A stretch of DNA of 64,000 nucleotides from an uncultured Actinomycetota bacterium (GCA_963718235.1 CAVQYR010000001.1:800001-864000), one strand, 5' to 3'. Shown: positions 26,441 to 43,021, numbered from the stretch's first letter. Made by a program: numbers and translations. The notes: generated from the letters alone by a model not told the origin.

Positions 26441-28198
26441 TCAACTTGTGATCTCGCAGATGACCGCGCCGCTGGCCAGCGTCTGACCCACCTCGGCCGC
26501 CAGGGCGGTGATGGTGCCGGCCTTGTGCGCGTTGAGCGGCTGCTCCATCTTCATCGCCTCGAGCACCACGATCATCTGTCCCGACTCGACCTGGTCACCC
26601 TCGGCCACGGCGAGCTTGACGATGGTTCCCTGCATGGGGCTGGTCAGTGCGTCGCCGGACGCCGCCGCGGAGGACTTGCGCTTGCCCGACCGCTTGGGTG
26701 CGGCTCGACCCGCCGGTGCCGACCCGGTCATCGACCCGATCCCGGCCGGGAGCACGACCTCCAGCCGCTTGCCACCCACCTCGACGGTGACCCGCTCGCG
26801 CGGCGCGGCCTCCGGTGTTTCGGCAGGGGCGCCCTGGTACGGCGCGATGGTGTTCTCGAACTGGGTCTCGATCCACCGGGTGTGGATCGAGAACGGCGTC
26901 GCGTCGTCGGTGGCGAAAGCGGGGTCGGCGACCACGGCGCGGTGGAACGGGATCACCGTGGGCATGCCGTCGATCTCGTACTCGGCCAGCGCGCGGCGTG
27001 AGCGTTCCAGCGCCTCCTTGCGGTCGCGGCCGGTCACGATGAGCTTGGCGATCAGCGAGTCGAACGCCTGCGGCACGGTGGCGCCGCTCTCGTAGCCGCC
27101 GTCGACGCGCACGCCGGGACCACCTGGTGTGCGCAGGTGCGTGATGGTCCCCGGTGCGGGCATGAAGCTGCGTCCGGCGTCCTCGGCGTTGATCCGGAAC
27201 TCGAAGGAGTGCCCGCGCAGGGGCGGGTCGTCGTAGCCGAGCATCTCGCCGTCGGCGATCCGGAACATCTCACGCACGAGGTCGACGCCGGAGACCTCCT
27301 CGGTGACCGGGTGCTCGACCTGCAGGCGGGTGTTGACCTCGAGGAACGAGATCGTGCCGTCCTGCCCGACCAGGAACTCACAGGTGCCGGCACCGGTGTA
27401 CCCGGCCTCGCGCAGGATCGCCTTGCTGGCCCGACGCAGCTCGGCCTCCTGGGCGTCGGACAGGTACGGCGCGGGGGCCTCCTCGACGAGCTTCTGGTTG
27501 CGCCGCTGCAGCGAGCAGTCGCGGGTCGAGACGACCACGACGTTGCCGTGCTGGTCGGCCAGGCACTGGGTCTCGACGTGGCGGGGCTGGTCGAGGAACC
27601 GTTCGACGAAGCACTCCCCGCGTCCGAAGGCGGTGACCGCCTCACGCACCGCGGAGTCGAACAGCTCGGGGATCTCGTCGAGGGATCGGGCCACCTTCAG
27701 GCCGCGACCGCCCCCGCCGTAGGCGGCCTTGATCGCGACCGGCAGGCCGTGCTCCTGGGCGAAGGTGACGACCTCGTCGGCGCCGGCCACCGGGTCGGAC
27801 GTACCCGGGACCAACGGGGCCCCGACCCGCTGGGCGATGTGCCGGGCCTGCACCTTGTCGCCGAGGGCGTCGATGGCGGCGGGTGGAGGCCCGATCCAGG
27901 TGATCCCGGCGTCGATGACCGCCTGGGCGAAGCCGGCGTTCTCGGCGAGGAACCCGTACCCGGGGTGGATCGCGTCGGCCCCGGAGCGTCGGGCGACGTC
28001 GAGGATCTTCGCGACGTCCAGGTAGGTCTGGGCAGGGGTGTCGCCGTCGAGGGCGTAGGCCTCGTCGGCCTCCCGCACGTGCAGCGCGTCCCGGTCGGCG
28101 TCGGCGTAGACGGCGACCGAGCCCAGCCCGGCGTCGCGCGCGGCGCGAGCGATCCGGACGGCGATCTCGCTCCGGTTGGCGATCAGGACCTTGCGCAC
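26441..28198 (-). CDS. accA: acetyl/propionyl-CoA carboxylase alpha subunit (biotin carboxylase + BCCP)
   Basis: [33 protein letters not shown] and the biotinylation motif EAMKM. Confidence 0.96.
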
Positions 28199-28287
28199 GA
28201 GCGGCTCCAGGAGATGGGCGGGCGCAGGTGAGTCTAGGGACGACCCGGTCCGGCAGGGGACACCCGGGCGGACCTGCTCCCGGTGAC

Positions 28288-28315
28288 TTGACGTCCGGGG
28301 GGACGTAAGTAAGGT
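28288..28315 (+). promoter_or_regulatory. housekeeping-type promoter (-35 TTGACG, -10 TAAGGT)
   Basis: TTGACG at 28288-28293, 16-nt spacer, TAAGGT at 28310-28315, upstream of an AAGGAG RBS. Confidence 0.6.
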
Positions 28316-28328
28316 ACGGCTTACCTAA
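28310..28328. promoter_or_regulatory. DtxR/IdeR iron box
   Basis: TAAGGTACGGCTTACCTAA matches the consensus TWAGGTWAGSCTWACCTWA at 18/19 positions and overlaps the -10. Confidence 0.85.
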
Positions 28329-28345
28329 CTTATCAAGGAGACTCC

Positions 28346-28717
28346 GTGATGCCCCGTTCCACGCCGGCTGCCTGCCTGGTTGCCTTGGCCGCTGCCGTGT
28401 CCTTGTCCGCCTGCTCCGGGGGTGACTCGCCCGTCGCCGCGGAACAGCTCTCCGTGACCTCGTCGGACGACGTGTGCACCGTCAACGACGACCGTGTGGC
28501 CGCCGGCCCGGTGACCCTGACCGTGGTCAACGAGGGGGACCAGGTCACCGAGGTCTACGTCTACGGGGAGGGTGACGCGATCATCGGCGAGAAGGAGGAC
28601 ATCACTCCCGGCTCGTCGGCGGACTTCACCGTCGAGCTGGAGGCCGGCCGCTACGAGATCGCCTGCAAGCCGGGGCAGACCGGCGACGGCATCCGGACCG
28701 AGCTCACCGTCGAGTAG
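28346..28717 (+). CDS. cupredoxin-domain lipoprotein (EfeO N-terminal-like), iron-regulated
   Basis: Signal peptide with lipobox [17 protein letters not shown] and YEIACKPG resemble the EfeO cupredoxin domain. No imelysin/M75 domain. Confidence 0.82.
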
Positions 28718-29351
28718 CCGCGCCCCACAGGTCGGTCACGGGGACGTCGAGCTCGGCGAGTAGAAGACGCAGCAGCGGCAGCGACAGCCCGAGCACCGTC
28801 CCGGGGTCGCCGTCGATGCCGTCGACGAACCAGCCGCCGAGCCGGTCGAGGGTGAACCCCCCGGCCACCCGCAGCGGCTCCCCGGTCGCGACGTAGGCGT
28901 GGATCTCCGCATCGGTCGGGCTGCCGAACCGCACCACCGCCGAGGCCAGCGCGGAGACCCGGCGGTGCTTCGCGGGGGTGTCGGTCAGCTGCACCAGGCA
29001 GTGCCCGGTGTGCAGCAGCCCCGACCGGCCGCGCATCGCCTGCCAACGGGCGACCGCGTCCGCCTCGTCGACCGGCTTCCCGAACGCCCGGCCGTCGAGC
29101 TCGAGCACCGAGTCGCAGCCGAGCACCAGGGTGGTCCGGCGGTGCGTCGGTTCGTCGTCGGACAGCGCCAGCTGGTCGGCCACGGCCTGGGCCTTGTGCT
29201 CGGCGAGGACCAGCGCGAGCTCGTCCGCAGGACCGGACACGGCGTCCTCGTCGACGCCGCTGACGACCACCTCGGGGTGGGCGCCGGCCGCCCGCAGCAG
29301 CGCCAGCCGGGCGGGCGACGCCGACGCGAGAACGAGCCGCACCGAGGACAC
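28704..29351 (-). CDS. maf: Maf-like nucleoside triphosphate pyrophosphatase
   Basis: [28 protein letters not shown] and VLGLSLP motifs. Usual position after the carboxylase epsilon gene. Confidence 0.9.
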
Positions 29352-29365
29352 GACGTCCGAGCCGC

Positions 29366-29575
29366 TCAGCGCGGCCAGGCGCTGGCGCGCCAGGCACCGG
29401 TGGCCGGTCGCAGGGGCGGTCGCACCAGCCGCCCACGAGACGCCCACACCGACTGTGGGCGCGGCGGGGTGCTGCGTTCGAACTCGGGGCCGCTGGCCGC
29501 GACGACGGCCACCAGGGCCGCCACCTCGGCGGCGGTCGGCTCGCCCTTGACGATGCGCAGCGCCGGGTCGCTCAC
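29366..29575 (-). CDS. acyl-CoA carboxylase epsilon subunit
   Basis: [20 protein letters not shown]...W...GAWRAS. GTGA overlap with the beta subunit stop. Confidence 0.85.
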
Positions 29576-31179
29576 AGCGGGATGTTCCCGTGCTTCTTGG
29601 GCGGGCGGCTGGCCCGTTTCGTGCGCAGCATCCGCAGCGCGCGCATGACCTGCTGCCGGGTGTGGGCCGGCTCGATGACGGCGTCGATGTAGCCGCGCTC
29701 GGCGGCGAGGTAGGGGTTGAGCAGGGCGTCCTCGTAGTCCTCGATCAGCCGGGCCCGCTCGGCGTCGACCGCGTCCCGCTCGGCCGCCTCGGCGAGCTCC
29801 TTGCGGTGCAGGATGTTCACCGCGCCCTGGGCCCCCATGACGGCGATCTGGGCCGTCGGCCAGGCCAGGTTGACGTCGGCCCCCAGGTGCTTGGAGCCCA
29901 TGACGTCGTAGGCCCCGCCGTAGGCCTTGCGGGTGATCACGGTGACCAGGGGGACGGTCGCCTCGGCGTAGGCGTAGATCAGCTTGGCGCCGCGCCGGAT
30001 GATGCCGTCCCACTCCTGGTCGGTCCCGGGCAGGAAGCCGGGGACATCGACGAAGGTGAGCACCGGCACGTTGAAGGCATCGCAGGTGCGCACGAAGCGC
30101 GCTGCCTTCTCCGACGCGGCGATGTCGAGGGTGCCGGCGAACTGCATCGGCTGGTTGGCCACCACCCCGACCGACCGCCCCTCGACCCGGCCGAAGCCGG
30201 TCAGGATGTTCGGCGCGTACAGCGGCTGGACCTCGAAGAAGTCACCGTCGTCGACCACCGCCTCGATCACGGTGTGCATGTCGTACGGGTGGTTGGCCGA
30301 GTCGGGGATCAGCGTGTCCAGCGCCTGGTCCTCGTCGGTGACGGCGTCGCTGACGTCGCTGGCGAACACCGGTGGGTCCTCGAGGTTGTTGCTCGGCAGG
30401 TACGACAGCAGCTGACGGGTCAGCTCGAGCGCATCGTTCTCGTCGGCGGCGGCGAAGTGGGCGACCCCGCTCTTGGCCTGGTGGCTCTGGGCGCCGCCCA
30501 GCTCCTCGAACTCGACGTCCTCACCGGTGACCGTCTTGATGACGTCGGGTCCGGTGATGAACATGTGCGAGGTCTTGTCGACCATGACGATGAAGTCGGT
30601 GATCGCGGGCGAGTAGACCGCACCGCCCGCGCACGGCCCCATGATCAGCGAGATCTGCGGGATCACCCCGGACGCCTGGACGTTGCGGTAGAAGATCTCG
30701 CCGTACTCGGCGAGCGAGGCCACGCCCTCCTGGATCCGGGCGCCGCCGGAGTCGTTGATCCCGACCAGGGGGGCGCCGGTCTTCAGGGCGAGGTCCATGA
30801 CCTTGACGATCTTCTCGCCGAACACCTCGCCCAGCGAGCCGCCGAAGACGGTGAAGTCCTGGGCGAAGACGAACACGAGTCGACCGTCGACGGTGCCGTG
30901 TCCGGTGATGACGCCGTCGCCGTACGGGCGCTTGTTCTGCAGCCCGAAGTTGTGGGTGCGGTGCCGGGCGAGGGCGTCCAGCTCGACGAAGGACCCGTCG
31001 TCGAGGAAGGCGTCGACCCGCTCGCGTGCGGTCATCTTGCCGCGCTTGTGCTGGGCCTCCACCGCACGGTCGGACCCGGCGTGGACGGCCTCGTCGACCT
31101 TGTGCTGCAGCTGGGCGAGCTTGCCCGCCGTCGTGTGCAGGTCGACTTCCTGCGGGGCGGGTACGGGCTCGGCGGCCAT
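29572..31179 (-). CDS. pccB: propionyl/acyl-CoA carboxylase beta subunit (AccD5/PccB-like)
   Basis: [35 protein letters not shown] and the C-terminal KKHGNIPL. Confidence 0.93.
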
Positions 31180-31289
31180 CAGGTCCCTTTCGGCAGATCC
31201 CGGTCGGCTTCATCGGAGCGGGGCGTTCGTAGCCTAACGAGGGCGCCCGCGGGGCGCTGCGCCGAACGGTGCACACGCGGCCCTTGAGG

Positions 31290-31317
31290 TCAATGAGCTG
31301 GACCAGCCCGCCGATGG
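31290..31317 (+). promoter_or_regulatory. sigma-28 (FliA/WhiG)-like promoter TCAA-N16-GCCGATGG
   Basis: TCAA at 31290-31293 and GCCGAT at 31310-31315, upstream of the first GGDEF gene. Confidence 0.55.
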
Positions 31318-31348
31318 TCAGACGAAGGGTCGCATTCGGGGGGAGTCC

Positions 31349-32992
31349 ATGGAGCAGGCTCGGCGGGAAGGGCTGCCGGTCGCGGCTGACGACCGCGGCC
31401 TGGCCGGCTCCCGCCTGCGCGCACTCAGCGAGATCGGTCGGGTCGCCATGACGGCACCGGCGGACGACGTGCTCGAGCAGGTCCTGCGCCGAGCCCGGCT
31501 GGCCCTCGGCGGCGACTCGTCGTCGCTGGGGGTGTGGCGACCCGAGCGCCAGCTGCTGCACACACTGGTGAACGAGGGCGACCTGGCCGACTGGGAGCAG
31601 CCCCGGCCGACCGAGGAGACGTACCCGGCCGACCAGAGCACCTGGCTGGCGGGGATGCCGGACGGGCATCTCGGGCTGGTGATGAACCTGGACGACCCTG
31701 ACCTGGCGGCCGACGACCGTGAGTACCTCACCGCGCTGGGCAAGCAGTCGTCGATCAGCCTGCCGATCCTGCTCGCGGGTGAGTGGTGGGGCGAGCTGTT
31801 CTTCGCCCGCCGGGCTGACCAGGCGCCGTTCACCGATGCCGACCTCGACTGGGGCGCCGCGGTCGCCGCTCAGGTCGGCGCGGCACTCGAGGCCGTGGAG
31901 CACCTCGGACGGGTGGCCGACCTGGCCCGGACCGACCCGCTCACCGGCCTGGCCAACCGCCGGGCGGTGGACGAGTGGATGGACGAAGCCCTGGCCGCCT
32001 GGCGCGAGCGGGGGGTGGTCACCGGCCTCGTGGTCAGCGACCTGAACGGGCTGAAGAAGGTCAACGACGCCGACGGGCACGACGCCGGTGACCGCCTGCT
32101 CGTCGCCTTCGCCCGCCAGCTGGAGGGCGTGGCCGAGCAGTTCGGCGCCTCGCTCGTGGCCCGCCTGGGTGGCGACGAGTTCGCCCTGGGCTTCACGGGA
32201 GTCGACGCGGACAGCATCGTGGTCGCCGCTGAGCTGCTCTGCGAGCGCGGCTGGGACACCCTGCCCGAGGGCGTGGCGTGCGGTGTCGCGGTGACCGGGG
32301 GTGGCTCCGGACCGGTGGAGACCGCCTCGCGGCTCTTCCGGCTGGCCGACGCGAGCCAGTACCGGGCCAAGCGCACGAGCTCTCGCCGTCCGGTTGTGGC
32401 CGGACGCGCCCTGCCGCCGGACGCGGTGGTCCCCCTGCACGTCGGCGACGAGCTCGGGCGGGACCGCCGGCTGGTGCGGACCGGGGGCCGTCGGGACGCC
32501 GCGCACCTCATCGAGTCGGCGCTGCGGGCGCTGGACCAGGTCCGTGACGAGCCGGTCTGCTCGCGACTGACCCTGGTCGGGGACGTGGTCGCGCAGTCCG
32601 TCGACGCCGTGGGGTGGTGGCTGTCGATCCAGGCGAGGAAGCGGTCCTCGATCCAGACCGTGGAGTTCGCCCTGTACCGACAGCTTCCCGGGCTCACCGA
32701 GGAGGAGCTGCGGGCCGAGATCGGGGCCGTCTTCCCCGTGGAGAGCTACCCCCTGTCCGCGGTGGCCCTGGGCGGGCAGTCCTTCCTGGTCCGGGCGACC
32801 GACCCCACCGCCGACGCCGGTGAGCTGGCCGTGCTCGACGGGCTGTGTGCCTCGGCCGTGGTGGGTGCGGGCGGTCCGGACGACGACGGCGACCGGTGGC
32901 TCCTCGAGGTCTACACCGACGAGCTCAGCGGTTCGGTCCGCGACCTGCCGTCCCTGATGCGAGTGCTCGTGCTCGCGGCGCTGCACCCGTGA
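31349..32992 (+). CDS. GAF-GGDEF diguanylate cyclase with extra C-terminal domain (paralog 1)
   Basis: GAF region (LVNEG, WWGELFFAR), TDPLTGLANRR, DLNGLKKVND..GH..GD and ARLGGDEF. Confidence 0.92.
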   Translation: MEQARREGLPVAADDRGLAGSRLRALSEIGRVAMTAPADDVLEQVLRRARLALGGDSSSLGVWRPERQLLHTLVNEGDLADWEQPRPTEETYPADQSTWLAGMPDGHLGLVMNLDDPDLAADDREYLTALGKQSSISLPILLAGEWWGELFFARRADQAPFTDADLDWGAAVAAQVGAALEAVEHLGRVADLARTDPLTGLANRRAVDEWMDEALAAWRERGVVTGLVVSDLNGLKKVNDADGHDAGDRLLVAFARQLEGVAEQFGASLVARLGGDEFALGFTGVDADSIVVAAELLCERGWDTLPEGVACGVAVTGGGSGPVETASRLFRLADASQYRAKRTSSRRPVVAGRALPPDAVVPLHVGDELGRDRRLVRTGGRRDAAHLIESALRALDQVRDEPVCSRLTLVGDVVAQSVDAVGWWLSIQARKRSSIQTVEFALYRQLPGLTEEELRAEIGAVFPVESYPLSAVALGGQSFLVRATDPTADAGELAVLDGLCASAVVGAGGPDDDGDRWLLEVYTDELSGSVRDLPSLMRVLVLAALHP

Positions 32993-33025
32993 GCCCGGCC
33001 GCCGCGGCTCGGGCCGCCCTACACC

Positions 33026-33054
33026 TCAAGCCGTCGGCCCGAACGCGCCGATAA
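33026..33054 (+). promoter_or_regulatory. sigma-28 (FliA/WhiG)-like promoter TCAA-N17-GCCGATAA
   Basis: Perfect GCCGATAA at 33047-33054, 6 nt before ATG 33061. TCAA at 33026-33029. Confidence 0.65.
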
Positions 33055-33060
33055 GCGACC

Positions 33061-34725
33061 ATGGGGACCGGAGGGCGCACGTCGACGTCGAGCGACCAGC
33101 GCCCCGACGCGGCGCGTCGGGACGTGATGGCTGCCCGCTTCCGTGCCCTCGCCGCCGTCGCCCGGGTGTCCACGACCGCGACCGGCTCCACGCTGCTTCG
33201 GGAGGTGGCCCAGGCGGCGCGTGAGGCGTTGGACGGCGCCTCGGTGTCGCTGTCGCGCTGGGAGCCGGAGAGCGGGCTGTTGCGCTGCCTGATCAACGAG
33301 GGAGACCTCGGGCCGACCGAGGTCCCCGAACCCGTCGACGAGACCTACTCGATGCTCGACTACCGGAACATGGCGGTCCTGATCGAGGACCAGGCCGCGC
33401 TCGTCGCCTCGGTCGACCAGGACGACGGCGACGGTGGGTACGTCCGCATGCTCACCGAGCTGCACAAGGGCAGCTGCGCCGCCGCCCCGATCCCGCTCGA
33501 CGGTCGGGTCTGGGGTGAGCTGTTCGTGACCCGCACGCTGGACCAGGCGCCGTTCACCGACTCCGACGGGGACCTCGCGGTCGCTGTGGCCGCCCAGGTC
33601 GGCGCCGCCATCGCCACGGCCGAGCACCTCGTGCGGGTGGAGCGGCTGGCCAGGACCGACCCGCTGACCGGGCTGGCCAACCGGCGGGCCGTCGACGACC
33701 GGCTCGACGAGGCCTTCGTGGCCTGGGCGGTGGACCAGGCGCCGGTCAGCCTGATCGTGTGCGACCTCAACGGGCTGAAGCGGCTCAACGACGACCAGGG
33801 CCACGAGGCCGGGGACCGGGCGCTGGTCCGCTTCGCCGGGCTGCTCAGCGAGACCGCCGCGTCACTGCCCGGTGCTCTTGCGGCGCGGCTGGGCGGTGAC
33901 GAGTTCTGCATCGTCGTGGGCGGGCTGTCGGCCGACGAGGTCGTCGCGGCCGCGGACCACTTGTGCCGAGCCGTCCAGCGCTCGCCGTTGGAGGGCGTCT
34001 CGTGCGGTGTCGCGTCCACCGGTGACGACGTCGGCGAGGTGACCGAGCGAGGTCGGCTGTTCCGCCTGGCCGACGCTGCGCAGTACCGCGCCAAGCGCAG
34101 CCGCTCGTCGCGGCCGGTCGTCGCCGGGCGCACCCTTCCCCCCGAGGCGGCGGTCGGTCTGGCCGAGCACCCGCTGCACGAGCGGCGCAGCTACCGCGGC
34201 CGCTCGTCACTCGACGGCAGCCGGCTGCTCGACCTGGGCCTGTCGTCCATGGACGACATGAAGGACCAGTTGGTCCGCACCCGTCTGGCCGCGCTCGGGG
34301 ACCTCGTCGGCCACCAGGTCGACGCGCTCGGCTGGTGGCTCTCGGTCAGCCCCGAGGGAGCCGACTACGTCGAGACGGTGCAGTTCGCGCTGTACCGGGT
34401 GCAGACGCCGGTAGCGGTCGGTTCCGGCGACCTCGGGGCGGTGGGGGCCCGGTTCCCGCTGACCGACTACCCGTTGACCCGCGAGCTGCTGCGAGGGGGC
34501 GGCGCGTGCGTCCACATCAGTGACCCGGGGGCCGACCCCTGCGAGGTCACCGTGCTGGACGGGATGGGGGCGGTGGCGATGGCCATCGTGGGAGCGACCG
34601 ACAGCGGGGGGACCTCATGGTTGCTGGAGGTGTTCGCCGACGAGATGAGCAGCTCGCTGTCCGACGTCCTGGCGGCGGTGCGGGCCTTGGCGGTCGTGGC
34701 GGTCACCGAGGCGAGTGGCGACTGA
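33061..34725 (+). CDS. GAF-GGDEF diguanylate cyclase with extra C-terminal domain (paralog 2)
   Basis: LINEG, VWGELFVTR, TDPLTGLANRR, DLNGLKRLND and ARLGGDEF. Confidence 0.92.
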   Translation: MGTGGRTSTSSDQRPDAARRDVMAARFRALAAVARVSTTATGSTLLREVAQAAREALDGASVSLSRWEPESGLLRCLINEGDLGPTEVPEPVDETYSMLDYRNMAVLIEDQAALVASVDQDDGDGGYVRMLTELHKGSCAAAPIPLDGRVWGELFVTRTLDQAPFTDSDGDLAVAVAAQVGAAIATAEHLVRVERLARTDPLTGLANRRAVDDRLDEAFVAWAVDQAPVSLIVCDLNGLKRLNDDQGHEAGDRALVRFAGLLSETAASLPGALAARLGGDEFCIVVGGLSADEVVAAADHLCRAVQRSPLEGVSCGVASTGDDVGEVTERGRLFRLADAAQYRAKRSRSSRPVVAGRTLPPEAAVGLAEHPLHERRSYRGRSSLDGSRLLDLGLSSMDDMKDQLVRTRLAALGDLVGHQVDALGWWLSVSPEGADYVETVQFALYRVQTPVAVGSGDLGAVGARFPLTDYPLTRELLRGGGACVHISDPGADPCEVTVLDGMGAVAMAIVGATDSGGTSWLLEVFADEMSSSLSDVLAAVRALAVVAVTEASGD

Positions 34726-34759
34726 GCCACCACGCGGTCGGTCCGACTAGCGTGCCCCC

Positions 34760-36226
34760 ATGGGCGGTGACGAGACCGTGATGCACCCACGGCTGACGGT
34801 GCGCGAGCGGCTGGCCCTGCTCGTCGATGCCGACACCTTCGTCGAGGACGGTGAGCTGGCCCACGCCCTCGAGCCGGGCTACCCGGCCGACGGTGTGGTC
34901 ACCGGGCGCGGGCTCGTCGACGGGCGTCCCGCCGTGGTCATCGCCAACGACCCGGCAGTGAAGGCGGGATCCTGGGGGGCCCGCACGGTGGAGAAGATGG
35001 TCCGGGCGACCGAGGGTGCGCTGCGTGACGAGCTCCCGGTGTTCTGGCTGATCGACTCCGCGGGGGCCCGGATCACCGACCAGGTCGCTATGTTCCCGGG
35101 ACGTCGGGGTGCCGGACGCATCTTCCACAACCAGGTGGCCCTGTCGGGCAAGGTGCCCCAGCTGTGCTGCCTCTTCGGTCCCAGCGCTGCGGGTGGTGCC
35201 TACATCCCCAGCTTCTGCGACTTCGTCGTCATGGTCGAGGACCGTGCCTCGATGTACCTGGGGAGTCCGCGGATGGCCGAGATGGTGATCGGAGAGACGG
35301 TCACCCTCCAGGAGATGGGCGGAGCCCGGATGCACGCCACGGTCAGCGGCTGCGGGGACAACCTCGCGGTCGACGACGAGGACGCGATCGAGCAGGCCCG
35401 ACTGGTGTTCTCCTACCTGCCGACGTGCTGGCGGGAGGACCCGCCGGACGCGCGGCCCGACCCGGCCGCGCGGGCGTTCGACGCGTCGATCGTCCCCCAC
35501 CGCGAGTCCCAGCCGTTCGACGTCCACGACGCCGTCGACGCGCTGGTCGACGCCGACAGCTTCTTCGAGGTCAAGCCGTTGTTCGCCGCCGAGCTCGTGA
35601 CCGGGTTCGCCCGGATCGAGGGCCAGGTGGTCGGGCTCGTGGCCAACAACAGCGCACAGAAGGGGGGCGTGCTGTTCGTCGACAGTGCCGACAAGGCCAC
35701 GCGGTTCATCACCTGGTGCGACGCCCTCAACGTGCCGTTGGTCTACCTGGCCGACGTTCCGGGATTCATGATCGGTCAGGAGGTCGAGCGGCAGGGCATC
35801 ATCCGGCACGGCGCCAAGATGGTCAGCGCCGTGGCCGAGGCGACGGTGCCGCAGGTCTGTGTGGTGCTCCGTAAGGCCTACGGCGCCGGTCTGTACGCGA
35901 TGGGTGGGCCCGGCTTCGGGCCGGACGCGACCCTCGCCCTGCCGACGGCTGTGATCGCCGTGATGGGGCCTGACGCCGCCGTCAACGCCGTCTACGCGAA
36001 GCGGATCGCGGCGATCGACGACGACGCGGAGCGGCAGGAGTTCATCGCGCAGCGGCGCACCGAGTACGTCGCTGACGTCGACCTGCTCCGGCTGGCCTCC
36101 GACCTGGTCGTCGACGCCGTCGTGCAGCCGGAGGCGCTGCGCCGTGAGGTGTCCCTGCGACTGGCCTACGCAGCCGGTCGATCCAGGCACTTCGCCGACA
36201 AGCGGCACGGGGTGCCGCCGGTATGA
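34760..36226 (+). CDS. second acyl-CoA carboxylase beta (carboxyltransferase) subunit
   Basis: DSAGARI, GPSAAGGAY, DVPGFMIG, RKAYGAG and the C-terminal KRHGVPPV. Confidence 0.92.
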   Translation: MGGDETVMHPRLTVRERLALLVDADTFVEDGELAHALEPGYPADGVVTGRGLVDGRPAVVIANDPAVKAGSWGARTVEKMVRATEGALRDELPVFWLIDSAGARITDQVAMFPGRRGAGRIFHNQVALSGKVPQLCCLFGPSAAGGAYIPSFCDFVVMVEDRASMYLGSPRMAEMVIGETVTLQEMGGARMHATVSGCGDNLAVDDEDAIEQARLVFSYLPTCWREDPPDARPDPAARAFDASIVPHRESQPFDVHDAVDALVDADSFFEVKPLFAAELVTGFARIEGQVVGLVANNSAQKGGVLFVDSADKATRFITWCDALNVPLVYLADVPGFMIGQEVERQGIIRHGAKMVSAVAEATVPQVCVVLRKAYGAGLYAMGGPGFGPDATLALPTAVIAVMGPDAAVNAVYAKRIAAIDDDAERQEFIAQRRTEYVADVDLLRLASDLVVDAVVQPEALRREVSLRLAYAAGRSRHFADKRHGVPPV

Positions 36227-36405
36227 CCGGGCCACGAGCGCTCGAGGTGGTGCGCGGCCAGGCCTCGGCCGACGACGTCAGCGCCTTGCACTCGGTGCTG
36301 CTCGCGACAGCGCCCTCGACCGACCCGTTGACCGCGTGGCGGGCTCGGCGTCGCGCCGCGCTGCGGGCCCACCCCGAGGCGCCGCCGGACCCGGGTCGCC
36401 GGTGA
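36223..36405 (+). CDS. small acyl-CoA carboxylase epsilon-like protein
   Basis: LEVVRGQASADDVSALHSVL...W resembles the epsilon motif. ATGA and GTGA overlaps couple it to both neighbours. Confidence 0.65.
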   Translation: MTGPRALEVVRGQASADDVSALHSVLLATAPSTDPLTAWRARRRAALRAHPEAPPDPGRR

Positions 36406-37163
36406 CCGACCAGGGGCTCGTAGGCGCCTCGTCGATGTGGACCTGTGTCGAGGAGGTGCCGACGACCGGCTCGACCAACGCCGACGTGAGGGCCCGGGCG
36501 GTGGACGGGGCCGACGAGGGCCTGGTCGTGTCCGCGGAGGAGCAGACCGCGGGTCGTGGACGCCTGGGGCGCCGCTGGACGGCGCCGGCCCGCAGCGGGC
36601 TGGCCGTCTCGGTGCTGCTGCGCCCCACCACCCGGCCGGCCGCGGAGTGGGGCTGGGTCCCCCTGCTGGTCGGGCTGGCGGCGGCCGACGCCGTGGCGTC
36701 GGTCTCGGGTCTCACGGTCGGGCTGAAGTGGCCCAACGACGTGTTGGTCGGCGAGCGCAAGGCCGGCGGAGTCCTGGTCGAGCGGGTCGAGACGGGCCGC
36801 GGCCCGGCCGCGGTCGCCGGCTTCGGGCTCAACGTCACGCTGCCGGAGTCGCAGCTGCCTGTGCCGACGGCCACCTCCTTGCTCGCCGAGGGGGCGACGG
36901 TCGACCGGCGCTCGCTGCTGCGCTCCTACCTCGCCGCGCTGGAGCTGCGCTACCGGGACTGGAGTGCTGGTGGCTCGGCTCGGGAGGAGTACCGACGTCA
37001 CTGCGTCACGCTCGGACGCAAGGTCCTGGTGCTGCTCCCGGGCGCCGCGGCGGACGTGGCCGGTGTGGCCGAGGACGTAGACGCGTCGGGTCGGCTGGTG
37101 GTCGCAGCGGCCACCGGAGCGCGGGTGGCGCTGTCGTCCGGCGAGGTGCAGCACGTCCGCTGA
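36402..37163 (+). CDS. birA: biotin--[acetyl-CoA-carboxylase] ligase
   Basis: GSTN, QTAGRGRLGRRW, LKWPND and KAGGVL motifs. No HTH domain (class I). Confidence 0.93.
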   Translation: MTDQGLVGASSMWTCVEEVPTTGSTNADVRARAVDGADEGLVVSAEEQTAGRGRLGRRWTAPARSGLAVSVLLRPTTRPAAEWGWVPLLVGLAAADAVASVSGLTVGLKWPNDVLVGERKAGGVLVERVETGRGPAAVAGFGLNVTLPESQLPVPTATSLLAEGATVDRRSLLRSYLAALELRYRDWSAGGSAREEYRRHCVTLGRKVLVLLPGAAADVAGVAEDVDASGRLVVAAATGARVALSSGEVQHVR

Positions 37164-37185
37164 CACCGCATGGAACGATGCAGCC

Positions 37186-37701
37186 GTGCCCTACCCGCAG
37201 AAGCTGCTCACCGAAGGTGAGCGGATCGAACGCGAGATGAGACCGCACTGGCGGATCCTGGTGATCCCGGTGACCGTGCTGTTCGTGGTGGTCTTCGTCA
37301 GCATGTACTCGATCTCCCGCTGGGCCGATGGAAAGCCGTGGCTGGGCTGGGCGATCGTCGCGGTCTCGCTCACCGTCCTCGTGGCCTGGGTCGTCGCCCC
37401 GGTCCTTCGCTGGGCGACCGCGCAGTACGTCCTGACCAACCGACGGATCATCGTGCGCAACGGGATCGTCGCGCGCCAGGGACGGGACATGCCCCTGGCG
37501 CGCGTCAATGACGTGCACTTCCGCTACACGGTGCTGGAGCGGATGCTCGGGTGCGGCACGCTGGTCGTGGAGTCGGCGGGTGAGAGCGGCCAGCTGGTGA
37601 TCGCTGCCGTCCCGCACGTCGAGCTGGTGCAGCGGGAGGTCTTCCGGCTGCACGAGCGCGACGACGAGCGGCGTCGCCGTGACGGGCGGACGTGGGAGTG
37701 A
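37186..37701 (+). CDS. membrane protein with bacterial PH domain
   Basis: RPHW, two TM segments, YVLTNRR, ERMLGCGTLVVESAG. Usual position after birA. Confidence 0.88.
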   Translation: MPYPQKLLTEGERIEREMRPHWRILVIPVTVLFVVVFVSMYSISRWADGKPWLGWAIVAVSLTVLVAWVVAPVLRWATAQYVLTNRRIIVRNGIVARQGRDMPLARVNDVHFRYTVLERMLGCGTLVVESAGESGQLVIAAVPHVELVQREVFRLHERDDERRRRDGRTWE

Positions 37702-39386
37702 CGGGCTCCCGGCAACAAGAGAGGCAACAAGGGGGGCAACAAGGGGGGCAACCCGGGGGGCAACAAGGGGGGCAACCCGGGGGGCACGACGAAGCAGTCG
37801 CGCGACTGGCCGCCCTGACCGACACGATCCGCGCGGTGGCCGACGCCCGTGGCAGCGACGACGTCCTGCTGGCGGCGGCGAGGGCGGCCCGGCTCGCCCT
37901 CGGCGGCGCCTCCGTGTCGGTCTCGCGGTGGGAGCGCGACCATGGACACGTCCGGACCGTCGTGAACGAGGGCGAGCGGGCGGAGTGGGAGCAGGAGCGC
38001 CCCGCCGATGAGGTGTACTCGGTGCGCAACGACCCCTCGATCGAGCGCCTGGTCACCGAGGGCGTCGGGTACCTGGCCCACGTGGGCACCGGCCGGGCCC
38101 CGCAGGTCGAGGCGCTGCTTGCCGGGTCCGGCAAGGCGAGCGCCGTGGACGTCCCCCTCTGGGTCGACGGCTCGGTGTGGGGGGACCTGTGGATCACCCG
38201 GACTGAGGAGCAGCCGCCGTTCACCCACTCAGACCTGGACTTCGCCCAGCTCCTGGCTGGGCAGATGGCCGCGGCCATCGCGGCGAGCCGCCGCTTCGCG
38301 CAGGTCGCCCAGCTCGCCTACACCGACGCGCTGACGGGCCTGGCGAACCGGCGCGCCGTGGACGAGCGGCTCGACGAGGTCGTCGCCGGACATCTGGACG
38401 ACGACCGGGTGGCGAGCCTCGTCGTGTGCGACGTCAACGGGCTCAAGCGGACCAACGACGAGCACGGGCACGACGCGGGGGATCGACTCCTCGTCCGGTT
38501 CGCCGGGCTGGTGAGCGCCGCTGCGGCGCTCGTCCCCGGAAGCCTTGCCGGTCGCCTCGGCGGCGACGAGTTCTGCATCGTGCTCGGCGGTGGCGACGCC
38601 GACGACGCGGTGGCCGTGGCGACCGACCTGTGTCGCAAGGCCGACCATGTCGTCCCCGACGGGATCGCCTGCGGCGTGGCGTCGACCCGCGACGACGTGG
38701 GGCCGGTCGACTCGGTCGGGAGGCTCTTCCGGCTGGCCGACGCCGCCCAGTACCGCGCCAAGCGCAGCGGGTCCCGCCGTCCGGTCGTCGCCGGGCGGAC
38801 GCTGCCGGTCGAGGCGACCCTGCGGGCCAGGTCCAGGTCCGGCCCGACCGACCGCCGCCGGGTCCGGGGCCGCGGGGCCACGGACCCGGCCCGGCTGCTC
38901 GGCGCGGGCGTCTCGGCCCTGGACGAGGCGACCGGGCGCCCGGCCCGGCAGCGGGTGGAGGTCGTGGCCGAGGCCGTGGCGCTGCAGGTCGAGGCGGCCG
39001 GCTGGTGGGTGTCCCGCAGCGACCCGGCGACCCGGGTGGTGCGAACCGTCAGCTACGCCCAGTACCGGTCGACGCTCCCCGAGGCGTCGCCGTTCGGCGC
39101 GGCCGGTGAGCTCGATGTCGAGTTCTCCCGCGACGACTATCCGCTGACCGACGCCGCCCTCTCCGGTGGCGCGTTCCTGGTCGAGGTCGACGACCCGTAC
39201 GCCGACCCGGCCGAGGTCGCCCTGGTCGACGGGTTCGGCTGCACCGCCCTGCTGTTCGCCGGAGGGGTCGACCCGGAGGGGACCGGCTGGCTCGTGGAGA
39301 TCTACGGCGACGAGCTGAGCCAGCCGATGCGCGACCAGTCACTCGTCCTGCGCGCGCTCGTCGCGCTCGCGCTCGCACCCCGGTGA
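37698..39386 (+). CDS. GAF-GGDEF diguanylate cyclase with extra C-terminal domain (paralog 3)
   Basis: VVNEG, VWGDLWITR, TDALTGLANRR, DVNGLKRTND and GRLGGDEF. GTGA overlap with the PH gene (alternative start 37692). Confidence 0.92.
   Translation: MTGSRQQERQQGGQQGGQPGGQQGGQPGGHDEAVARLAALTDTIRAVADARGSDDVLLAAARAARLALGGASVSVSRWERDHGHVRTVVNEGERAEWEQERPADEVYSVRNDPSIERLVTEGVGYLAHVGTGRAPQVEALLAGSGKASAVDVPLWVDGSVWGDLWITRTEEQPPFTHSDLDFAQLLAGQMAAAIAASRRFAQVAQLAYTDALTGLANRRAVDERLDEVVAGHLDDDRVASLVVCDVNGLKRTNDEHGHDAGDRLLVRFAGLVSAAAALVPGSLAGRLGGDEFCIVLGGGDADDAVAVATDLCRKADHVVPDGIACGVASTRDDVGPVDSVGRLFRLADAAQYRAKRSGSRRPVVAGRTLPVEATLRARSRSGPTDRRRVRGRGATDPARLLGAGVSALDEATGRPARQRVEVVAEAVALQVEAAGWWVSRSDPATRVVRTVSYAQYRSTLPEASPFGAAGELDVEFSRDDYPLTDAALSGGAFLVEVDDPYADPAEVALVDGFGCTALLFAGGVDPEGTGWLVEIYGDELSQPMRDQSLVLRALVALALAPR
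37711..37782 (+). repeat. 12-bp tandem repeat x6 (GGCAAC[AA/CC]GGGG) encoding Q(Q/P)GG
   Basis: Units start at 37711 (degenerate), 37723, 37735, 37747, 37759 and 37771, giving five G6 tracts spaced by 6 nt. Confidence 0.9.
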
Positions 39387-39409
39387 GCGCCGCGTCCTAC
39401 CATCGAGCC

Positions 39410-40084
39410 GTGCCCCAGGTACTGCTCGTCGAGGACGACGCCGCGATCGCCGAACCGCTGGCTCGGGCGCTGCGCCGCGAGGGCTACGACGTCGAAGTCG
39501 CCGGTACCGGACCGGTGGCCCTCGAGTGCGCGTCGACCGGGCAGACGGACCTGATGGTGCTCGACCTCGGGCTCCCCGAGATGGACGGGCTCGAGGTCTG
39601 TCGGCGGCTGCGGGCGCTGGGGAGCGACCTGCCGGTCCTGGTCCTGACGGCACGCACCGAGGAGCTGGACGCAGTGGTGGGGCTGGACGCGGGTGCCGAC
39701 GACTACGTCACCAAGCCGTTTCGGCTCAGCGAGCTGCTCGCCCGGGTCCGGGCCCTGCTGCGCCGCGGACTCGCCCCGGCCGACCACCTCGCGGTCCAGG
39801 ACGTCAGGATCGAGCGGTCGGCGCGACGCGCGTGGGTCGGGCAGGACGAGCTTGCGCTCACGAACAAGGAGTTCGACGTGCTCGCCGCCCTCGCCAGTCG
39901 GGCCGGTTCGGTCCTGACGCGTGAGGCACTGATGTGCGAGGTGTGGCAGACCGGCTGGGTGGGATCGACGAAGACGCTGGACATGCACGTCTCCTCGCTG
40001 CGCCGCAAGCTCGGGGACGACGTCACGGCTCCGCACTACATCAGCACGGTCCGCGGCGTCGGCTACCGGTTCGAGCAGGACTGA
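39410..40084 (+). CDS. OmpR-family response regulator
   Basis: LLVEDD, LDLGLP, DDYVTKPF and TVRGVGYRF motifs. TACCAT lies 6 nt before the GTG. Confidence 0.95.
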   Translation: MPQVLLVEDDAAIAEPLARALRREGYDVEVAGTGPVALECASTGQTDLMVLDLGLPEMDGLEVCRRLRALGSDLPVLVLTARTEELDAVVGLDAGADDYVTKPFRLSELLARVRALLRRGLAPADHLAVQDVRIERSARRAWVGQDELALTNKEFDVLAALASRAGSVLTREALMCEVWQTGWVGSTKTLDMHVSSLRRKLGDDVTAPHYISTVRGVGYRFEQD

Positions 40085-40085
40085 C

Positions 40086-41333
40086 GTGCGGCGGCGCTAC
40101 CTGCGCTCCACCCTGCTGATCGTGCTGGTGGGCATGTCGTTGCTCGCCGTGGTGATGGCGGTGGCGAGCAGCCGGGGGATCCGCGGTGAGGCCGAGGACC
40201 GGCTCGCCGCCGAGGCCGACCGGATCGCGACGACGGTCGGCACCCGGGTGGCCGCCGGGCTGCCGGTCGACCCCGACTTCGTCGACGAGCTGGTTCCTGC
40301 CGACCGATGGGTGCGTGTCACACTGACCGCCGGCCAGATGGTCGAAGCCGGTGAGCCGGTCGGTGCCGACGCGTTGTCGGCACGGGCGGCGGTGTCTCCG
40401 GCCGGTACCGGCTGGGTGTCCGTGCTGGAGAGCCCGGACCGGGTGCGCCAGAGCCAGCTGGTCTCGGCCCTGTCGATCCTGGCGATCGTGCTGGGCGTCG
40501 GTCTGCTGGCCACCGTCCTGGCGGTTCGCGAGTCGCGCCGACTGACCCGTCCGCTGGCCGACCTGGCCGACCGGGCCGCGCGGCTGGGGTCGGGGGACCT
40601 GCGGCCCAGCGGCCAGCGGTTCGGGGTGCCCGAGCTCGACCGGGTGGCCGAGGCGCTGGACGACAGTGCCGTCGAGCTGGGCGTCGCCGCCGAGGAGTCG
40701 CGCGCCCGGGTCGTCGACGCCTCCCACCAGCTGCGCACCCCGTTGACCGCGCTGTCGATCCGGCTGGAGGAGATCGGCCAGGCGCGTGACCTCGCTGCGA
40801 TCCAGGTCGAGGCGGGCGCGGCCCTCGAGCAGGTCGAGCGCCTGACCGGGGTCGTCGACGCGATGCTCGTCGCGTCCGGAGGCTCCGGCCGGGCCCGGCC
40901 GGAGACCGCCCTGGCGACCGTCCTGCGTCAGCAGGTGGGCGAGTGGTCGCCGTCCTACGCCGCGGTCGGTCGGGTACTGACCGCCGAGGGCCGCAGCGGT
41001 CTGGTCGTCCAGGGGTCACCCGGGGCGGTGAGCCAGATCCTGGCGACCCTGGTGGAGAACTCGCTGCTGCACGGGGCCGGGACCACGCGTCTCGTCGTGC
41101 GGCAGGCCGAGGGCGCGGTGGTGGTCGAGGTCGGTGACCAGGGGGACGGTGTGTCCGCCGCGTTGGCGCCGCACGTCTTCGAGCGATCGATCAGTGGTGG
41201 CGGCGGTAGCGGGGTGGGGCTGGCCGTCGCGCGGGCCATGGCGGAGTCGGTCGGAGGCCGGTTGGAGCTGACGACGCGCTCACCCGCCACGTTCTCGTTG
41301 TTCCTCCGACCGGTCAGCGGTTCCGTCCGCTGA
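40086..41333 (+). CDS. sensor histidine kinase (HAMP-HisKA-HATPase)
   Basis: Two TM segments, DASHQLRTPLT, LVENSLLHG, DQGDG and GSGVGLA. Confidence 0.93.
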   Translation: MRRRYLRSTLLIVLVGMSLLAVVMAVASSRGIRGEAEDRLAAEADRIATTVGTRVAAGLPVDPDFVDELVPADRWVRVTLTAGQMVEAGEPVGADALSARAAVSPAGTGWVSVLESPDRVRQSQLVSALSILAIVLGVGLLATVLAVRESRRLTRPLADLADRAARLGSGDLRPSGQRFGVPELDRVAEALDDSAVELGVAAEESRARVVDASHQLRTPLTALSIRLEEIGQARDLAAIQVEAGAALEQVERLTGVVDAMLVASGGSGRARPETALATVLRQQVGEWSPSYAAVGRVLTAEGRSGLVVQGSPGAVSQILATLVENSLLHGAGTTRLVVRQAEGAVVVEVGDQGDGVSAALAPHVFERSISGGGGSGVGLAVARAMAESVGGRLELTTRSPATFSLFLRPVSGSVR

Positions 41334-41786
41334 CCGCTCGGGGTGGGGAAACACCCAGGTGCGGTACGCGACGAACCGGAACAGGGTGCCCAGGGCCACC
41401 CCCACGAGGTTCGCTGAGATGTTGTCCGCCAGCGGCCCCCGCAGGTCCAGGACGTAGCGGGACACCGCCAGCGGGAGCAAGGTGATGCCGAGCGCCACCG
41501 CGTTGACCCCGAGGAACATCGCGTACTCCCTGAACACACCGCGACGGTCCCGGTCCCGGAAGGTCCACTGCCGGTTGCCGCCGTAGGCCACGACGGTGGC
41601 CAGCACCCCCGCGATCGTCTTCGCGGTCAGCGGCTTGTCGTGCAGCGGCCCCTCGCCGCCGCCGAAGACCAGCAGGTTGTAGGTGCCGACGTCGACGACG
41701 TAGGCGATGATGCCGACGGTGCCGAACTTCGCCAGCTCTGCGGTCAACCGACGCAGCGGGGTCGTCGAACCGGGGGGCAGGCTCAC
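41280..41786 (-). CDS. GtrA family membrane protein
   Basis: KFGTVG, NRQWTF and YRTWVF motifs with four TM segments. Usual position next to purK. Confidence 0.88.
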   Translation of the reverse strand: MSLPPGSTTPLRRLTAELAKFGTVGIIAYVVDVGTYNLLVFGGGEGPLHDKPLTAKTIAGVLATVVAYGGNRQWTFRDRDRRGVFREYAMFLGVNAVALGITLLPLAVSRYVLDLRGPLADNISANLVGVALGTLFRFVAYRTWVFPHPERSADGTADRSEEQRERGG

Positions 41787-41880
41787 GAACGGTGAGCGGA
41801 CGGCGACGACATGGGCTCAGGCTATCGGGCGCCAAGGCTCGGTCGACCGCCGCTTTGGACGGCCCGGGTAGTCTGCGCCG

Positions 41881-43021
41881 GTGACGTTCCCCACGGTCGG
41901 TGTGGTCGGTGGCGGTCAGCTGGCGCGGATGATGCAGCCGGCGGCCGTGGCGTTGGGGGTCCGGCTCGTCGTGCTGGCCGACGTGGCCGACGACAGTGCG
42001 GCGCAGGTGGTCCCCGACGTCGTCGTCGGTGACTACCGCGACCGCTCGACCCTGGAGTCGTTCGCCTCGGGCTGTGACGTCGTGACCTTCGACCACGAGC
42101 ACGTCCCGGCCGAGCACCTGCGCGCGCTCGTGGCTGCGGGGTTCACCGTGCGCCCCGGGCCGGCGGCGCTGGCCCACGCCCAGGACAAGTCGGTGATGCG
42201 CGAGCGGCTCGGCGCGATGGGCGCCCCGGTCCCACGGTGGCGGACCGTCAAGGACGTGGCCGACGTCGTCGCGTTCGCCGAGGGCTCGAGCTGGCCGCTG
42301 GTGCTCAAGGCCACCCGGGGCGGCTACGACGGCAAGGGGGTGTGGGTCGTGGCCGACGCCGACGAGGCCGACTGGGTGCTCTCCCACGACCAGGTCCCCG
42401 GCTTCCTCGTCGAGGAGCGGGTGCCCTTCACCCGTGAGCTGGCCGCTTTGGTGGCCCGTAGTCCCAGCGGGCAGGCGGTGGCCTACCCCGTGGTCGAGAC
42501 CGTGCAGGTCGACGGCATCTGTCGGGAGGTCTACGCGCCCGCCCCCGGCCTCGACCCCGACCATGCCGTGGCGGCGCAGGAGGTCGCGCTGAGGATCGCT
42601 GGTGAGCTCGACGTGGTCGGTGTCCTCGCCGTCGAGCTGTTCGACACCCCGGCGGGGGTGCTCGTCAACGAGCTGGCGATGCGGCCGCACAACTCCGGGC
42701 ACTGGACGATCGACGGTTCGGTCACCAGCCAGTTCGAGAACCACCTGCGAGCCGTCCTCGACCTCCCGCTCGGTGACCCGTCGGTCACTCGCCCCGGTGA
42801 CGGTGATGGTGAACGTCCTCGGTGGCGACCTCCCGGACCTCTACCCCGCCTACCTGCACTGCATGGCCCGCGACCCCGGACTCAAGGTGCACATGTACGG
42901 CAAGGCGGTTCGCCCCGGTCGCAAGGTGGGGCACGTCACGGTGACCGGAGAACACGTCGACGCGTGCAAGGAGCGGGCCAGACATGCGGCGTCCTACCTG
43001 AGAGGCGACATCGATGAGTAG
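41881..43021 (+). CDS. purK: N5-carboxyaminoimidazole ribonucleotide synthase (apparent frameshift ~42785)
   Basis: [27 protein letters not shown] and SQFENHLRA motifs. The C-terminus [20 protein letters not shown] is in the 42602..43021 frame. Confidence 0.93.

Follow-up and report, generated by a model that had tools for sequence, protein, structure and literature searches.

We analysed a 64,000-nucleotide (nt) stretch of DNA from an uncultured Actinomycetota bacterium (hereafter the window; G000:C1:800001-864000), which belongs to a host genome of 3.17 Mb in two contigs with ~72% G+C, and we focused on three diguanylate cyclase genes that lie within a biotin carboxylase locus. Their products consist of an N-terminal GAF domain (N-GAF), a GGDEF domain, and a C-terminal tail, which our analyses identify as a further GAF domain (GAF'). 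The three genes and their tails are located as follows, with positions counted from the first nucleotide of the window.

31349..32992, plus strand: cyclase 1, GAF-GGDEF-GAF', 547 amino acids (aa), ATG start; GAF at residues ~39-180, GGDEF at 194-344; orthologue group 'DGC1' in the tree
32459-32989, plus strand: tail of cyclase 1 (residues 371-547)
33061..34725, plus strand: cyclase 2, GAF-GGDEF-GAF', 554 aa, ATG start; GAF at residues 44-184, GGDEF at 198-349
34180-34710, plus strand: tail of cyclase 2 (residues 374-550); structures predicted for the tail and the full length
37692..39386, plus strand: cyclase 3, GAF-GGDEF-GAF', 564 aa, GTG start; Q/G-rich N-terminus
38847-39383, plus strand: tail of cyclase 3 (residues 386-564)

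A preliminary description of this DNA had reported three GAF-GGDEF paralogs that retain their catalytic motifs but have no RxxD, and the open reading frames (ORFs), Pfam matches and three-way alignment all agree with that account. The ORFs starting at 31349 and 33061 were confirmed, whereas the third starts at a GTG at 37692 rather than at 37698, which is a GTG two codons further in. The pairwise identity of the proteins is 43-46%, and Pfam recognises in each of them a GAF domain (E values of 2e-9 to 2e-11) and a GGDEF domain (1e-21 to 1e-26), the latter (PF00990) at 77.8, 93.8, and 86.5 bits (cut-off 23.8), with TIGR00254 also above its cut-off. D(L/V)NGLK..ND..GH.AGD and GGDEF are invariant across the three cyclases, the former corresponding to the upstream substrate/metal region of the domain. 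Because the catalytic motifs are intact, each protein should make cyclic diguanosine monophosphate (c-di-GMP), from two molecules of guanosine triphosphate (GTP) and as a dimer. At the position of the inhibitory site (I-site), i.e., four residues located five before GGDEF, the three cyclases carry FGAS, LPGA, and VPGS instead of RxxD; among 57 relatives, RxxD occurs in none, and GGDEF is intact in 52. The stretch RLFRLADA.QYRAKR..S.RPVVAGR was rejected as part of a new domain, as it represents the canonical end of GGDEF (Pfam profile positions extending to 158-160 of 161). Past residue ~350-365, Pfam has no match in any of the three cyclases, and all of the tail motifs listed in the preliminary description were found there in our alignment, i.e., GWW(L/V)S, TV.(F/Y)A.YR, YPL, DP.AD..E, W(L)(L/V)E(V/I)(Y/F).DE(L/M)S, and a final helix. 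We also observed a 12/24-nt tandem repeat (6.3 and 3.2 copies) at window 37711-37786, which encodes the QQGGQ(P)GG run of the cyclase 3 N-terminus and thus renders the true start codon of that gene uncertain.

The tails are invisible to domain databases. When searched alone (last 175-180 aa), none of the three window tails had a Pfam match even at an E value of 10, and NCBIfam returned only GGDEF-type matches for the window cyclases, with none in that region. The suggestion that the tail is 'possibly GAF-like', for which structure prediction had been proposed, was upheld both by fold (AlphaFold2, Foldseek, and VIA-align) and by profile homology (hhalign). More specifically, the AlphaFold2 model of the tail, based on the three window sequences, reached a predicted local distance difference test score (pLDDT) of 83.2 and a predicted template modelling score (pTM) of 0.82, and it displays the helices flanking a six-stranded antiparallel sheet that define the GAF fold. 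In a Foldseek search of the PDB, all matches at ranks 1-50 were GAF or GAF-like (E values of ~2e-6, template modelling scores of 0.60-0.66) and comprised GAFs of phytochromes, cyanobacteriochromes, and sensor kinases, together with one IclR regulator. Likewise, when VIA-align was run against 48,161 representative chains, nearly all of the top 50 matches were GAFs (Z scores of 14.0-10.2, 127-168 residues aligned), including those of phytochromes, free methionine sulfoxide reductase (fRMsr), PtsP, DevS, PDE2A, and PDE6. The neighbours of the tail in the ESM Atlas were GAF clusters (score 0.97). We saw no invariant Cys for a covalently bound bilin in the tail. A homodimer prediction for the tail (residues 383-554, 57-row alignment, two copies) scored 0.32 against a mark of 0.42, with controls at 0.00.

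To relate the tail to the N-GAF of the same proteins, we compared structure models and sequence profiles. In the full-length model of cyclase 2, built from the 57 relatives (pLDDT 89.7, pTM 0.60), helices and strands follow the same order in N-GAF (residues 17-198) and tail (residues 386-549). Consistently, hhalign aligned the tail with the N-GAF columns of the 57 relatives over 117 columns at 98% probability (E value 3.1e-13), whereas control comparisons of tail and N-GAF with the GGDEF columns gave 0.3-0.4% probability. One of 40 related tails scanned singly was itself matched by Pfam as GAF (E value 5.3e-5), and the tail profile weakly matched the Pfam-recognised GAF of an EAL-GAF protein encoded in the same genome. 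Thus, the tail is a cryptic, highly diverged GAF domain, a homologue of the GAF with which these proteins begin, and the architecture is therefore GAF-GGDEF-GAF'. An ancient internal duplication of the N-terminal GAF would be the simplest reading of its origin; it is consistent with the homology but not proven by it. As a side observation, the EAL-GAF protein (459 aa; G000:C2:838093-839289, minus strand; locus L004 1444-2823) carries its GAF at the C-terminus, and that GAF is the only other weak tail-profile match in the host genome (E value 1e-4); similar weak matches were found in 440-457-aa frames of three further genomes (G010, G013, and G015).

A profile survey of the tail, which the preliminary description had also proposed, yielded 414 matches at E <= 0.001 among 1.84 billion cluster representatives searched exhaustively, 203 of them at E <= 1e-10 and 28 at E <= 1e-30; tail conservation is thus far beyond chance. 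A Pfam scan took in 90 of the 150 tail matches listed, the others being 55 sequences under ~350 aa, mostly fragments, and P0148 and P0153-P0156. GGDEF directly precedes the tail in 88 of these 90 relatives (P0129 and P0144 are without GGDEF); most are GAF-GGDEF-tail proteins, five carry an extra N-terminal HD-GYP-type HD_5, and two an extra EAL. The hallmark tail residues W425, P471, G479, D492, E495, W520, L521, E523, and D527 (cyclase 2 numbering) are kept in 48-56 of the 57 relatives, with E523 and D527 present in 56, L521 in 55, and W425 in 53. Named records with the tail (22 loci) include Actinomycetes metagenome-assembled genomes (MAGs), Yinghuangia, Nanopelagicales, Motilibacteraceae, Pseudonocardiales, Mycobacteriales, and Thermoleophilia. 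When 40 genomes related to that of the window were compared, tail copies (1-4 each) were found in 18 of 19 genomes of its own family, and a tail match was obtained in 6 of 21 other families; these six include the unpublished G033 as well as a weak, partial match.

At the junction of GGDEF and tail, we noted an Arg-rich stretch, (D/E)RRxxR(G)R (cyclase 2 residues 375-382, window 34183-34206), which occupies the equivalent junction in relatives. R375 is kept in 48/57 relatives, R376 in 52/57, R379 in 41/57, and RRxxR in 39/57. The stretch is predicted to be disordered (pLDDT < 50), and its RxxxR spacings resemble c-di-GMP-binding motifs.

The cyclase genes are interleaved with carboxyltransferase, epsilon, birA, and PH genes, as the preliminary description had stated, and in part overlap them; the epsilon match is sub-threshold. 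The neighbouring genes are listed below.

26441..28198, minus strand: biotin carboxylase and biotin carrier (AccA-type alpha subunit), 585 aa; Pfam CPSase_L_D2, Biotin_carb_N/C, Biotin_lipoyl
29572..31179, minus strand: carboxyltransferase 1, 535 aa, divergent from the cyclase 1 gene; Pfam Carboxyl_trans, E value 9.5e-205
34760..36226, plus strand: carboxyltransferase 2, 488 aa, 34 nt past cyclase 2; Pfam Carboxyl_trans, E value 3.5e-144
36223..36405, plus strand: 60-aa ORF for a probable epsilon subunit of acyl-CoA carboxylase; its start overlaps the stop of carboxyltransferase 2
36402..37163, plus strand: biotin-protein ligase BirA; Pfam BPL_LplA_LipB, BPL_C; NCBIfam birA_ligase, E value 1.9e-38
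37186..37701, plus strand: 171-aa protein with a bacterial PH domain (bPH_2); its end overlaps the cyclase 3 start; Pfam E value 1.1e-18
39383..40084, plus strand: OmpR-type response regulator; start overlaps the cyclase 3 stop by 4 nt; Pfam Response_reg, Trans_reg_C
40086..41333, plus strand: histidine kinase with DraK-type N-terminal sensor; Pfam DraK_HK_N, HAMP, HisKA, HATPase_c

The alpha-subunit gene is kept at the edge of the locus in relatives, and the position of the bPH_2 gene next to the cyclase gene is conserved in other lineages too. Carboxyltransferase 1 is 74-94% identical among relatives, and a plus-strand ORF opposite to it (29590-31287, 565 aa) has no family match; we therefore rejected that ORF as a gene and regard it as a shadow of the minus-strand carboxyltransferase. 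The 60-aa ORF is assigned as the epsilon subunit tentatively, with an ACC_epsilon match (E value 0.0066, 17.5 bits) that falls under Pfam's 25-bit cut-off, and BirA most likely starts at the GTG at 36402, overlapping the epsilon stop, the longest ORF beginning at 36144. The cyclase paralogs are probably co-transcribed, judging solely by short gaps and overlaps, because a consensus scan of window 28000-42500 gave neither promoter-like nor terminator-like sites. Between the two minus-strand carboxylase genes lies a small cupredoxin-like protein (28346-28717; Cupredoxin_1, E value 4e-11), which is also found in a same-genus relative (L015/L046).

Among the known systems closest to the window proteins is CdgE of Streptomyces, which they resemble in core and context. 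According to PMC7911125, S. ghanaensis CdgE (ssfg_02707) is an active cyclase of 382 aa with the architecture GAF-GGDEF, orthologous to sco4931 and sven4602. In bioRxiv 10.1101/2020.04.24.060822, S. venezuelae CdgE is reported to be an active cyclase inhibited by added c-di-GMP, and two-hybrid assays (PMC13232838) are reported to show interactions of the protein with itself, with RmdB, and with sigma-WhiG. These sources describe CdgE as a two-domain GAF-GGDEF protein, and the activity assays published in PMC7911125 and bioRxiv 10.1101/2020.04.24.060822 concern short Streptomyces orthologues only. Streptomyces CdgE (S. venezuelae vnz22740/sven4602, S. ghanaensis ssfg_02707, and S. coelicolor sco4931) shares with the window cyclases the GAF-GGDEF core with an intact GGDEF, and within this common region the short Streptomyces-type proteins show 45-48% identity to cyclase 3. 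In contrast, the window proteins (547-564 aa, third domain) depart from the published two-domain architecture of ~380 aa, and CdgE lacks the C-terminal GAF' and is encoded by a single copy, compared with three in the window.

That CdgE-like genes occupy the carboxylase/birA/PH locus, as the preliminary description held, was substantiated by synteny comparison across lineages: the carboxyltransferase/birA/bPH neighbourhood of the window is conserved in loci L017, L021, L022, L028, and L056 and in three short-form loci (L061-L063). In Yinghuangia, the order is carboxyltransferase (minus strand), BirA, bPH, class III adenylate cyclase, and a GAF-GGDEF-tail protein; this arrangement, in which the adenylate cyclase may be absent and a regulator and a kinase often come next, recurs in Nanopelagicales, Motilibacteraceae, and Mycobacteriales loci. 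Loci L028 and L030 have the exact order bPH, cyclase, response regulator, and histidine kinase that is seen at cyclase 3. The Streptomyces CdgE locus resembles the window in its carboxyltransferase/birA neighbourhood but has an adenylate cyclase between, whereas in the window no such gene separates bPH from the cyclase. The class III adenylate cyclase gene (Guanylate_cyc and Ad_Cy_reg) lies between bPH/BirA and the cdgE-type gene in L021 (5048-6247) and also in L017, L022, L056, L057, and L061-L063, and it is missing from the window and from the own-family loci examined; where it is present, cyclases for cyclic AMP and c-di-GMP adjoin.

To compare long and short forms, we searched 81 Streptomycetaceae genomes, i.e., of the family of Yinghuangia, with the 555-aa Yinghuangia protein. 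In 41 genomes the match extended through the end of the tail (one split into two stretches and one cut by a contig end), and in the other 40 it reached only to residues ~338-427, mostly within open frames of ~382-530 aa. Three short forms of 381-384 aa lie in a carboxyltransferase-BirA-cyclase context (BirA was not registered in L061), are without RxxD like the window cyclases, and stop right after (D/E)RRR.RGR, the point where the tail of the long form begins. No tail-like sequence was found in five short-form genomes searched at E <= 0.01. Named long forms occur in Yinghuangia, Streptodolium, Embleya, Streptacidiphilus, Kitasatospora, Peterkaempfera, and Allostreptomyces, and their entries mostly cover 95-100% of the query (68% in Allostreptomyces). 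These database entries are annotated GAF/GGDEF only, with the tail unannotated. In Kitasatospora, Streptacidiphilus, Embleya, and Yinghuangia, the long form is entered as a 'sensor domain-containing diguanylate cyclase'; it has the full GAF-GGDEF-GAF' architecture, with the same neighbourhood in Yinghuangia, and it differs from the window proteins in being single-copy per genome in the sample and only ~42-46% identical to them. Given the spread of the long form and the ending of the short forms precisely where the tail would begin, sequence comparison marks CdgE of the short Streptomyces type as a derived, truncated form, and the Streptomyces model enzyme is therefore a truncated derivative. 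The idea that this lineage had 'added' the extra domain does not hold, as the tail is found in single-copy positional orthologues of other actinobacterial orders and Thermoleophilia, and half the sampled Streptomycetaceae carry it. The preliminary description had also considered that the tail might be an annotated domain already standard in CdgE orthologues; the tail is indeed standard in orthologues outside the short-form group, yet it is annotated in no database.

The history of the cyclase genes was followed in a quick maximum-likelihood tree of 43 full-length proteins with midpoint rooting and support from the Shimodaira-Hasegawa-like approximate likelihood ratio test (SH-aLRT); it held family members only, without an outgroup of other GGDEF proteins, and left out the 1010-aa L055 protein, the fragmented L026 and L036 genes, L027, L029, and the redundant L059 and L060 copies. 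The 26 copies that come from the family of the window genome all fall in a single clade (SH-aLRT 96), which comprises four orthologue groups, in agreement with the threefold gene expansion that the preliminary description had proposed for this lineage. The bPH-adjacent copies (cyclase 3 and its counterparts in G002 and G006) are sister, with support of 99, to all other family copies; these fall into one group with cyclase 2, one with cyclase 1, and a fourth orthologue group found in two other genera. Cyclase 3 is the copy in the ancestral position, i.e., between bPH and the regulator-kinase pair, and in the closest relative, of the same genus (G001), cyclases 1 and 2 are present, but bPH and the regulator have no cyclase 3 between them. 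The tail is kept in all 26 family copies after duplication. From these sequence relationships, the gene was multiplied within the family of the window genome, giving as many as four copies in tandem or close by, three of them in the window; the threefold expansion is real and specific to that family, and the third domain predates it.

Taken together, we consider it probable that the window genes encode cytosolic cyclases of the CdgE lineage with the architecture GAF-GGDEF-GAF', in which the tail is a diverged GAF, that this form is old and widespread, that Streptomyces CdgE is a truncated version of it, and that the genes were duplicated specifically in this family. Several points weigh against this view. 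Profiles of the three window sequences alone gave only 3% probability in hhalign, so that homology between tail and N-GAF is visible only with the deeper, 57-sequence profiles; the Pfam GAF models PF01590, PF13185, and PF13492 had no match in 39 of the 40 related tails; and PDB sequence searches with tail profiles gave no real match (two chance-level TetR proteins at E values of 0.3-0.4, and none at E <= 1 in a second search). The tail could instead derive from another GAF, and the inter-domain geometry of the full-length cyclase 2 model is uncertain at its pTM. The tree support comes from a quick search with SH-aLRT only and midpoint rooting. In an even sample of the phylum, at least 13 of 401 genomes (own included) carry the tail at E <= 1e-10, a lower bound for which the best 8 candidates per genome were scored; with so few carriers, an 'ancestral' tail implies many losses, and some horizontal spread may have occurred. 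We also infer the equation of the short form with Streptomyces proper from length, synteny, and the single 382-aa figure in PMC7911125.

In the mechanism that we envisage for GAF-GGDEF-GAF' cyclases, each dimeric enzyme would convert two GTP into c-di-GMP without an RxxD product-inhibition site, and GAF' would act as a second regulatory module, either sensing a ligand or controlling how the two GGDEF domains meet. In that case two GAF inputs would be combined in the output of each cyclase, and these inputs would have diverged between the paralogs. The assignment of GAF' as a regulatory module of either kind is a tentative prediction from domain architecture. A bolder version, speculative and quite improbable as a whole, is that the GAF/GAF' pair and the Arg-rich RRxxR(G)R junction may form an I-site-independent regulatory device, in which GAF' would sense a nucleotide or a metabolite of acyl-CoA carboxylase/biotin metabolism and gate GGDEF dimerisation, a device lost in the Streptomyces enzyme and with its inputs split among the 3-4 paralogs.

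Other roles for the tail have to be weighed against a regulatory GAF'. The tail might pair paralogs into heterodimeric cyclases, or mainly dimerise, given that GGDEF cyclases act as dimers, that GAF domains often dimerise, and that the paralogs are probably co-transcribed; self-interaction of S. venezuelae CdgE in two-hybrid assays (PMC13232838) would also fit. Yet the tail occurs in single-copy genomes of several other families and orders, and because most lineages are single-copy, paralog pairing cannot be its original role. The short CdgE, moreover, still self-interacts and is active without a tail (PMC7911125 and PMC13232838), and we think a pairing role unlikely. Absence of RxxD throughout the family raises the question of whether the tail takes over from the missing I-site as a receptor for c-di-GMP and exerts feedback inhibition through its GAF; GAF domains are classic binders of cyclic nucleotides, and the conserved Arg-rich stretch lies just before the tail. 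However, S. venezuelae CdgE is reported to be product-inhibited (bioRxiv 10.1101/2020.04.24.060822) and, assumed to be a short form, would be without both RxxD and tail, so that feedback need not depend on the tail; the short forms examined lack both as well, yet keep the Arg-rich stretch. We consider a product receptor still less likely than a pairing role.

Sensing of an acyl-CoA or biotin metabolite by one or both GAFs, which would couple c-di-GMP to carboxylase activity, would explain why the genes for the alpha subunit and two carboxyltransferases have stayed together with birA and bPH in different orders, and the window cyclase genes lie 34 nt from, or overlap, their neighbours. Genes of the actinobacterial core chromosome may keep their order without sharing a function, though, and because the tail-less short forms share the same synteny, it does not single out the tail; in addition, the cdgE phenotype reported in PMC7911125 is an effect on development upon overexpression. 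We regard such coupling as very unlikely. Finally, divergence past Pfam recognition and loss without obvious harm in the short-form lineage would suit a decaying, functionless remnant of a duplicated GAF, but the hallmark residues are kept across classes, the predicted fold is confident, and every family copy in the tree retained the tail after duplication, which makes a remnant extremely improbable.

Regulated cyclases with related layouts are known. PleD of Caulobacter has the architecture Rec-Rec'-GGDEF, with an RxxD I-site, and it resembles the window proteins in that a cyclase is regulated by a duplicated, diverged sensor pair, one canonical and one a degenerate adaptor; it differs in that both sensors are N-terminal receivers, whereas the GAFs of the window cyclases flank the catalytic domain and RxxD is absent. 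PelD combines a GAF with a degenerate GGDEF, and mycobacterial DcpA is a GAF-GGDEF-EAL protein. The phytochrome-linked cyclase IsPadC (PDB 5llw and 6saw) has a GAF fold near GGDEF, and its GAF chains are among the structural matches of the tail. In all three of these systems the GAF precedes GGDEF, unlike GAF' of the tail, and a literature search found no paper describing a GAF after GGDEF in the CdgE family.

The novelty is modest: GAF as a kind of domain and the cyclase family were already known, and the new elements are a third domain that had gone unrecognised, the age of that domain, and the truncation in the model organism. The finding is thus an annotation and evolutionary correction, not a new kind of system. 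CdgE is one of several conserved c-di-GMP cyclases in Streptomyces, and its broader family has a third, database-invisible GAF; a truncated model enzyme changes the view of what the 'native' regulation of the family may be. Long and short forms, such as those of Kitasatospora and Streptomyces, offer a ready natural comparison, and the tail profile can be used for annotating several hundred protein clusters.

Some further observations concern relatives and the host genome. In L017 (8531-10015) and L023 (8498-9982), and also in L022 and L026, a second GAF-GGDEF gene encoding 494 aa follows the tail-bearing cyclase with overlapping stop and start, and the ~150-aa C-terminus of its product has no tail-profile match. 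L028 (labelled an Acidobacteria MAG) and L030 (a Nanopelagicales MAG) carry near-identical cyclases (branch lengths of 0.03 and 0.11) in the same actinobacterial gene order, and the 'Acidobacteria' contig is probably mis-binned. The host genome has 15 GGDEF-domain and 7 EAL matches above cut-off, so that the three window cyclases are a minority of a rich c-di-GMP gene set.

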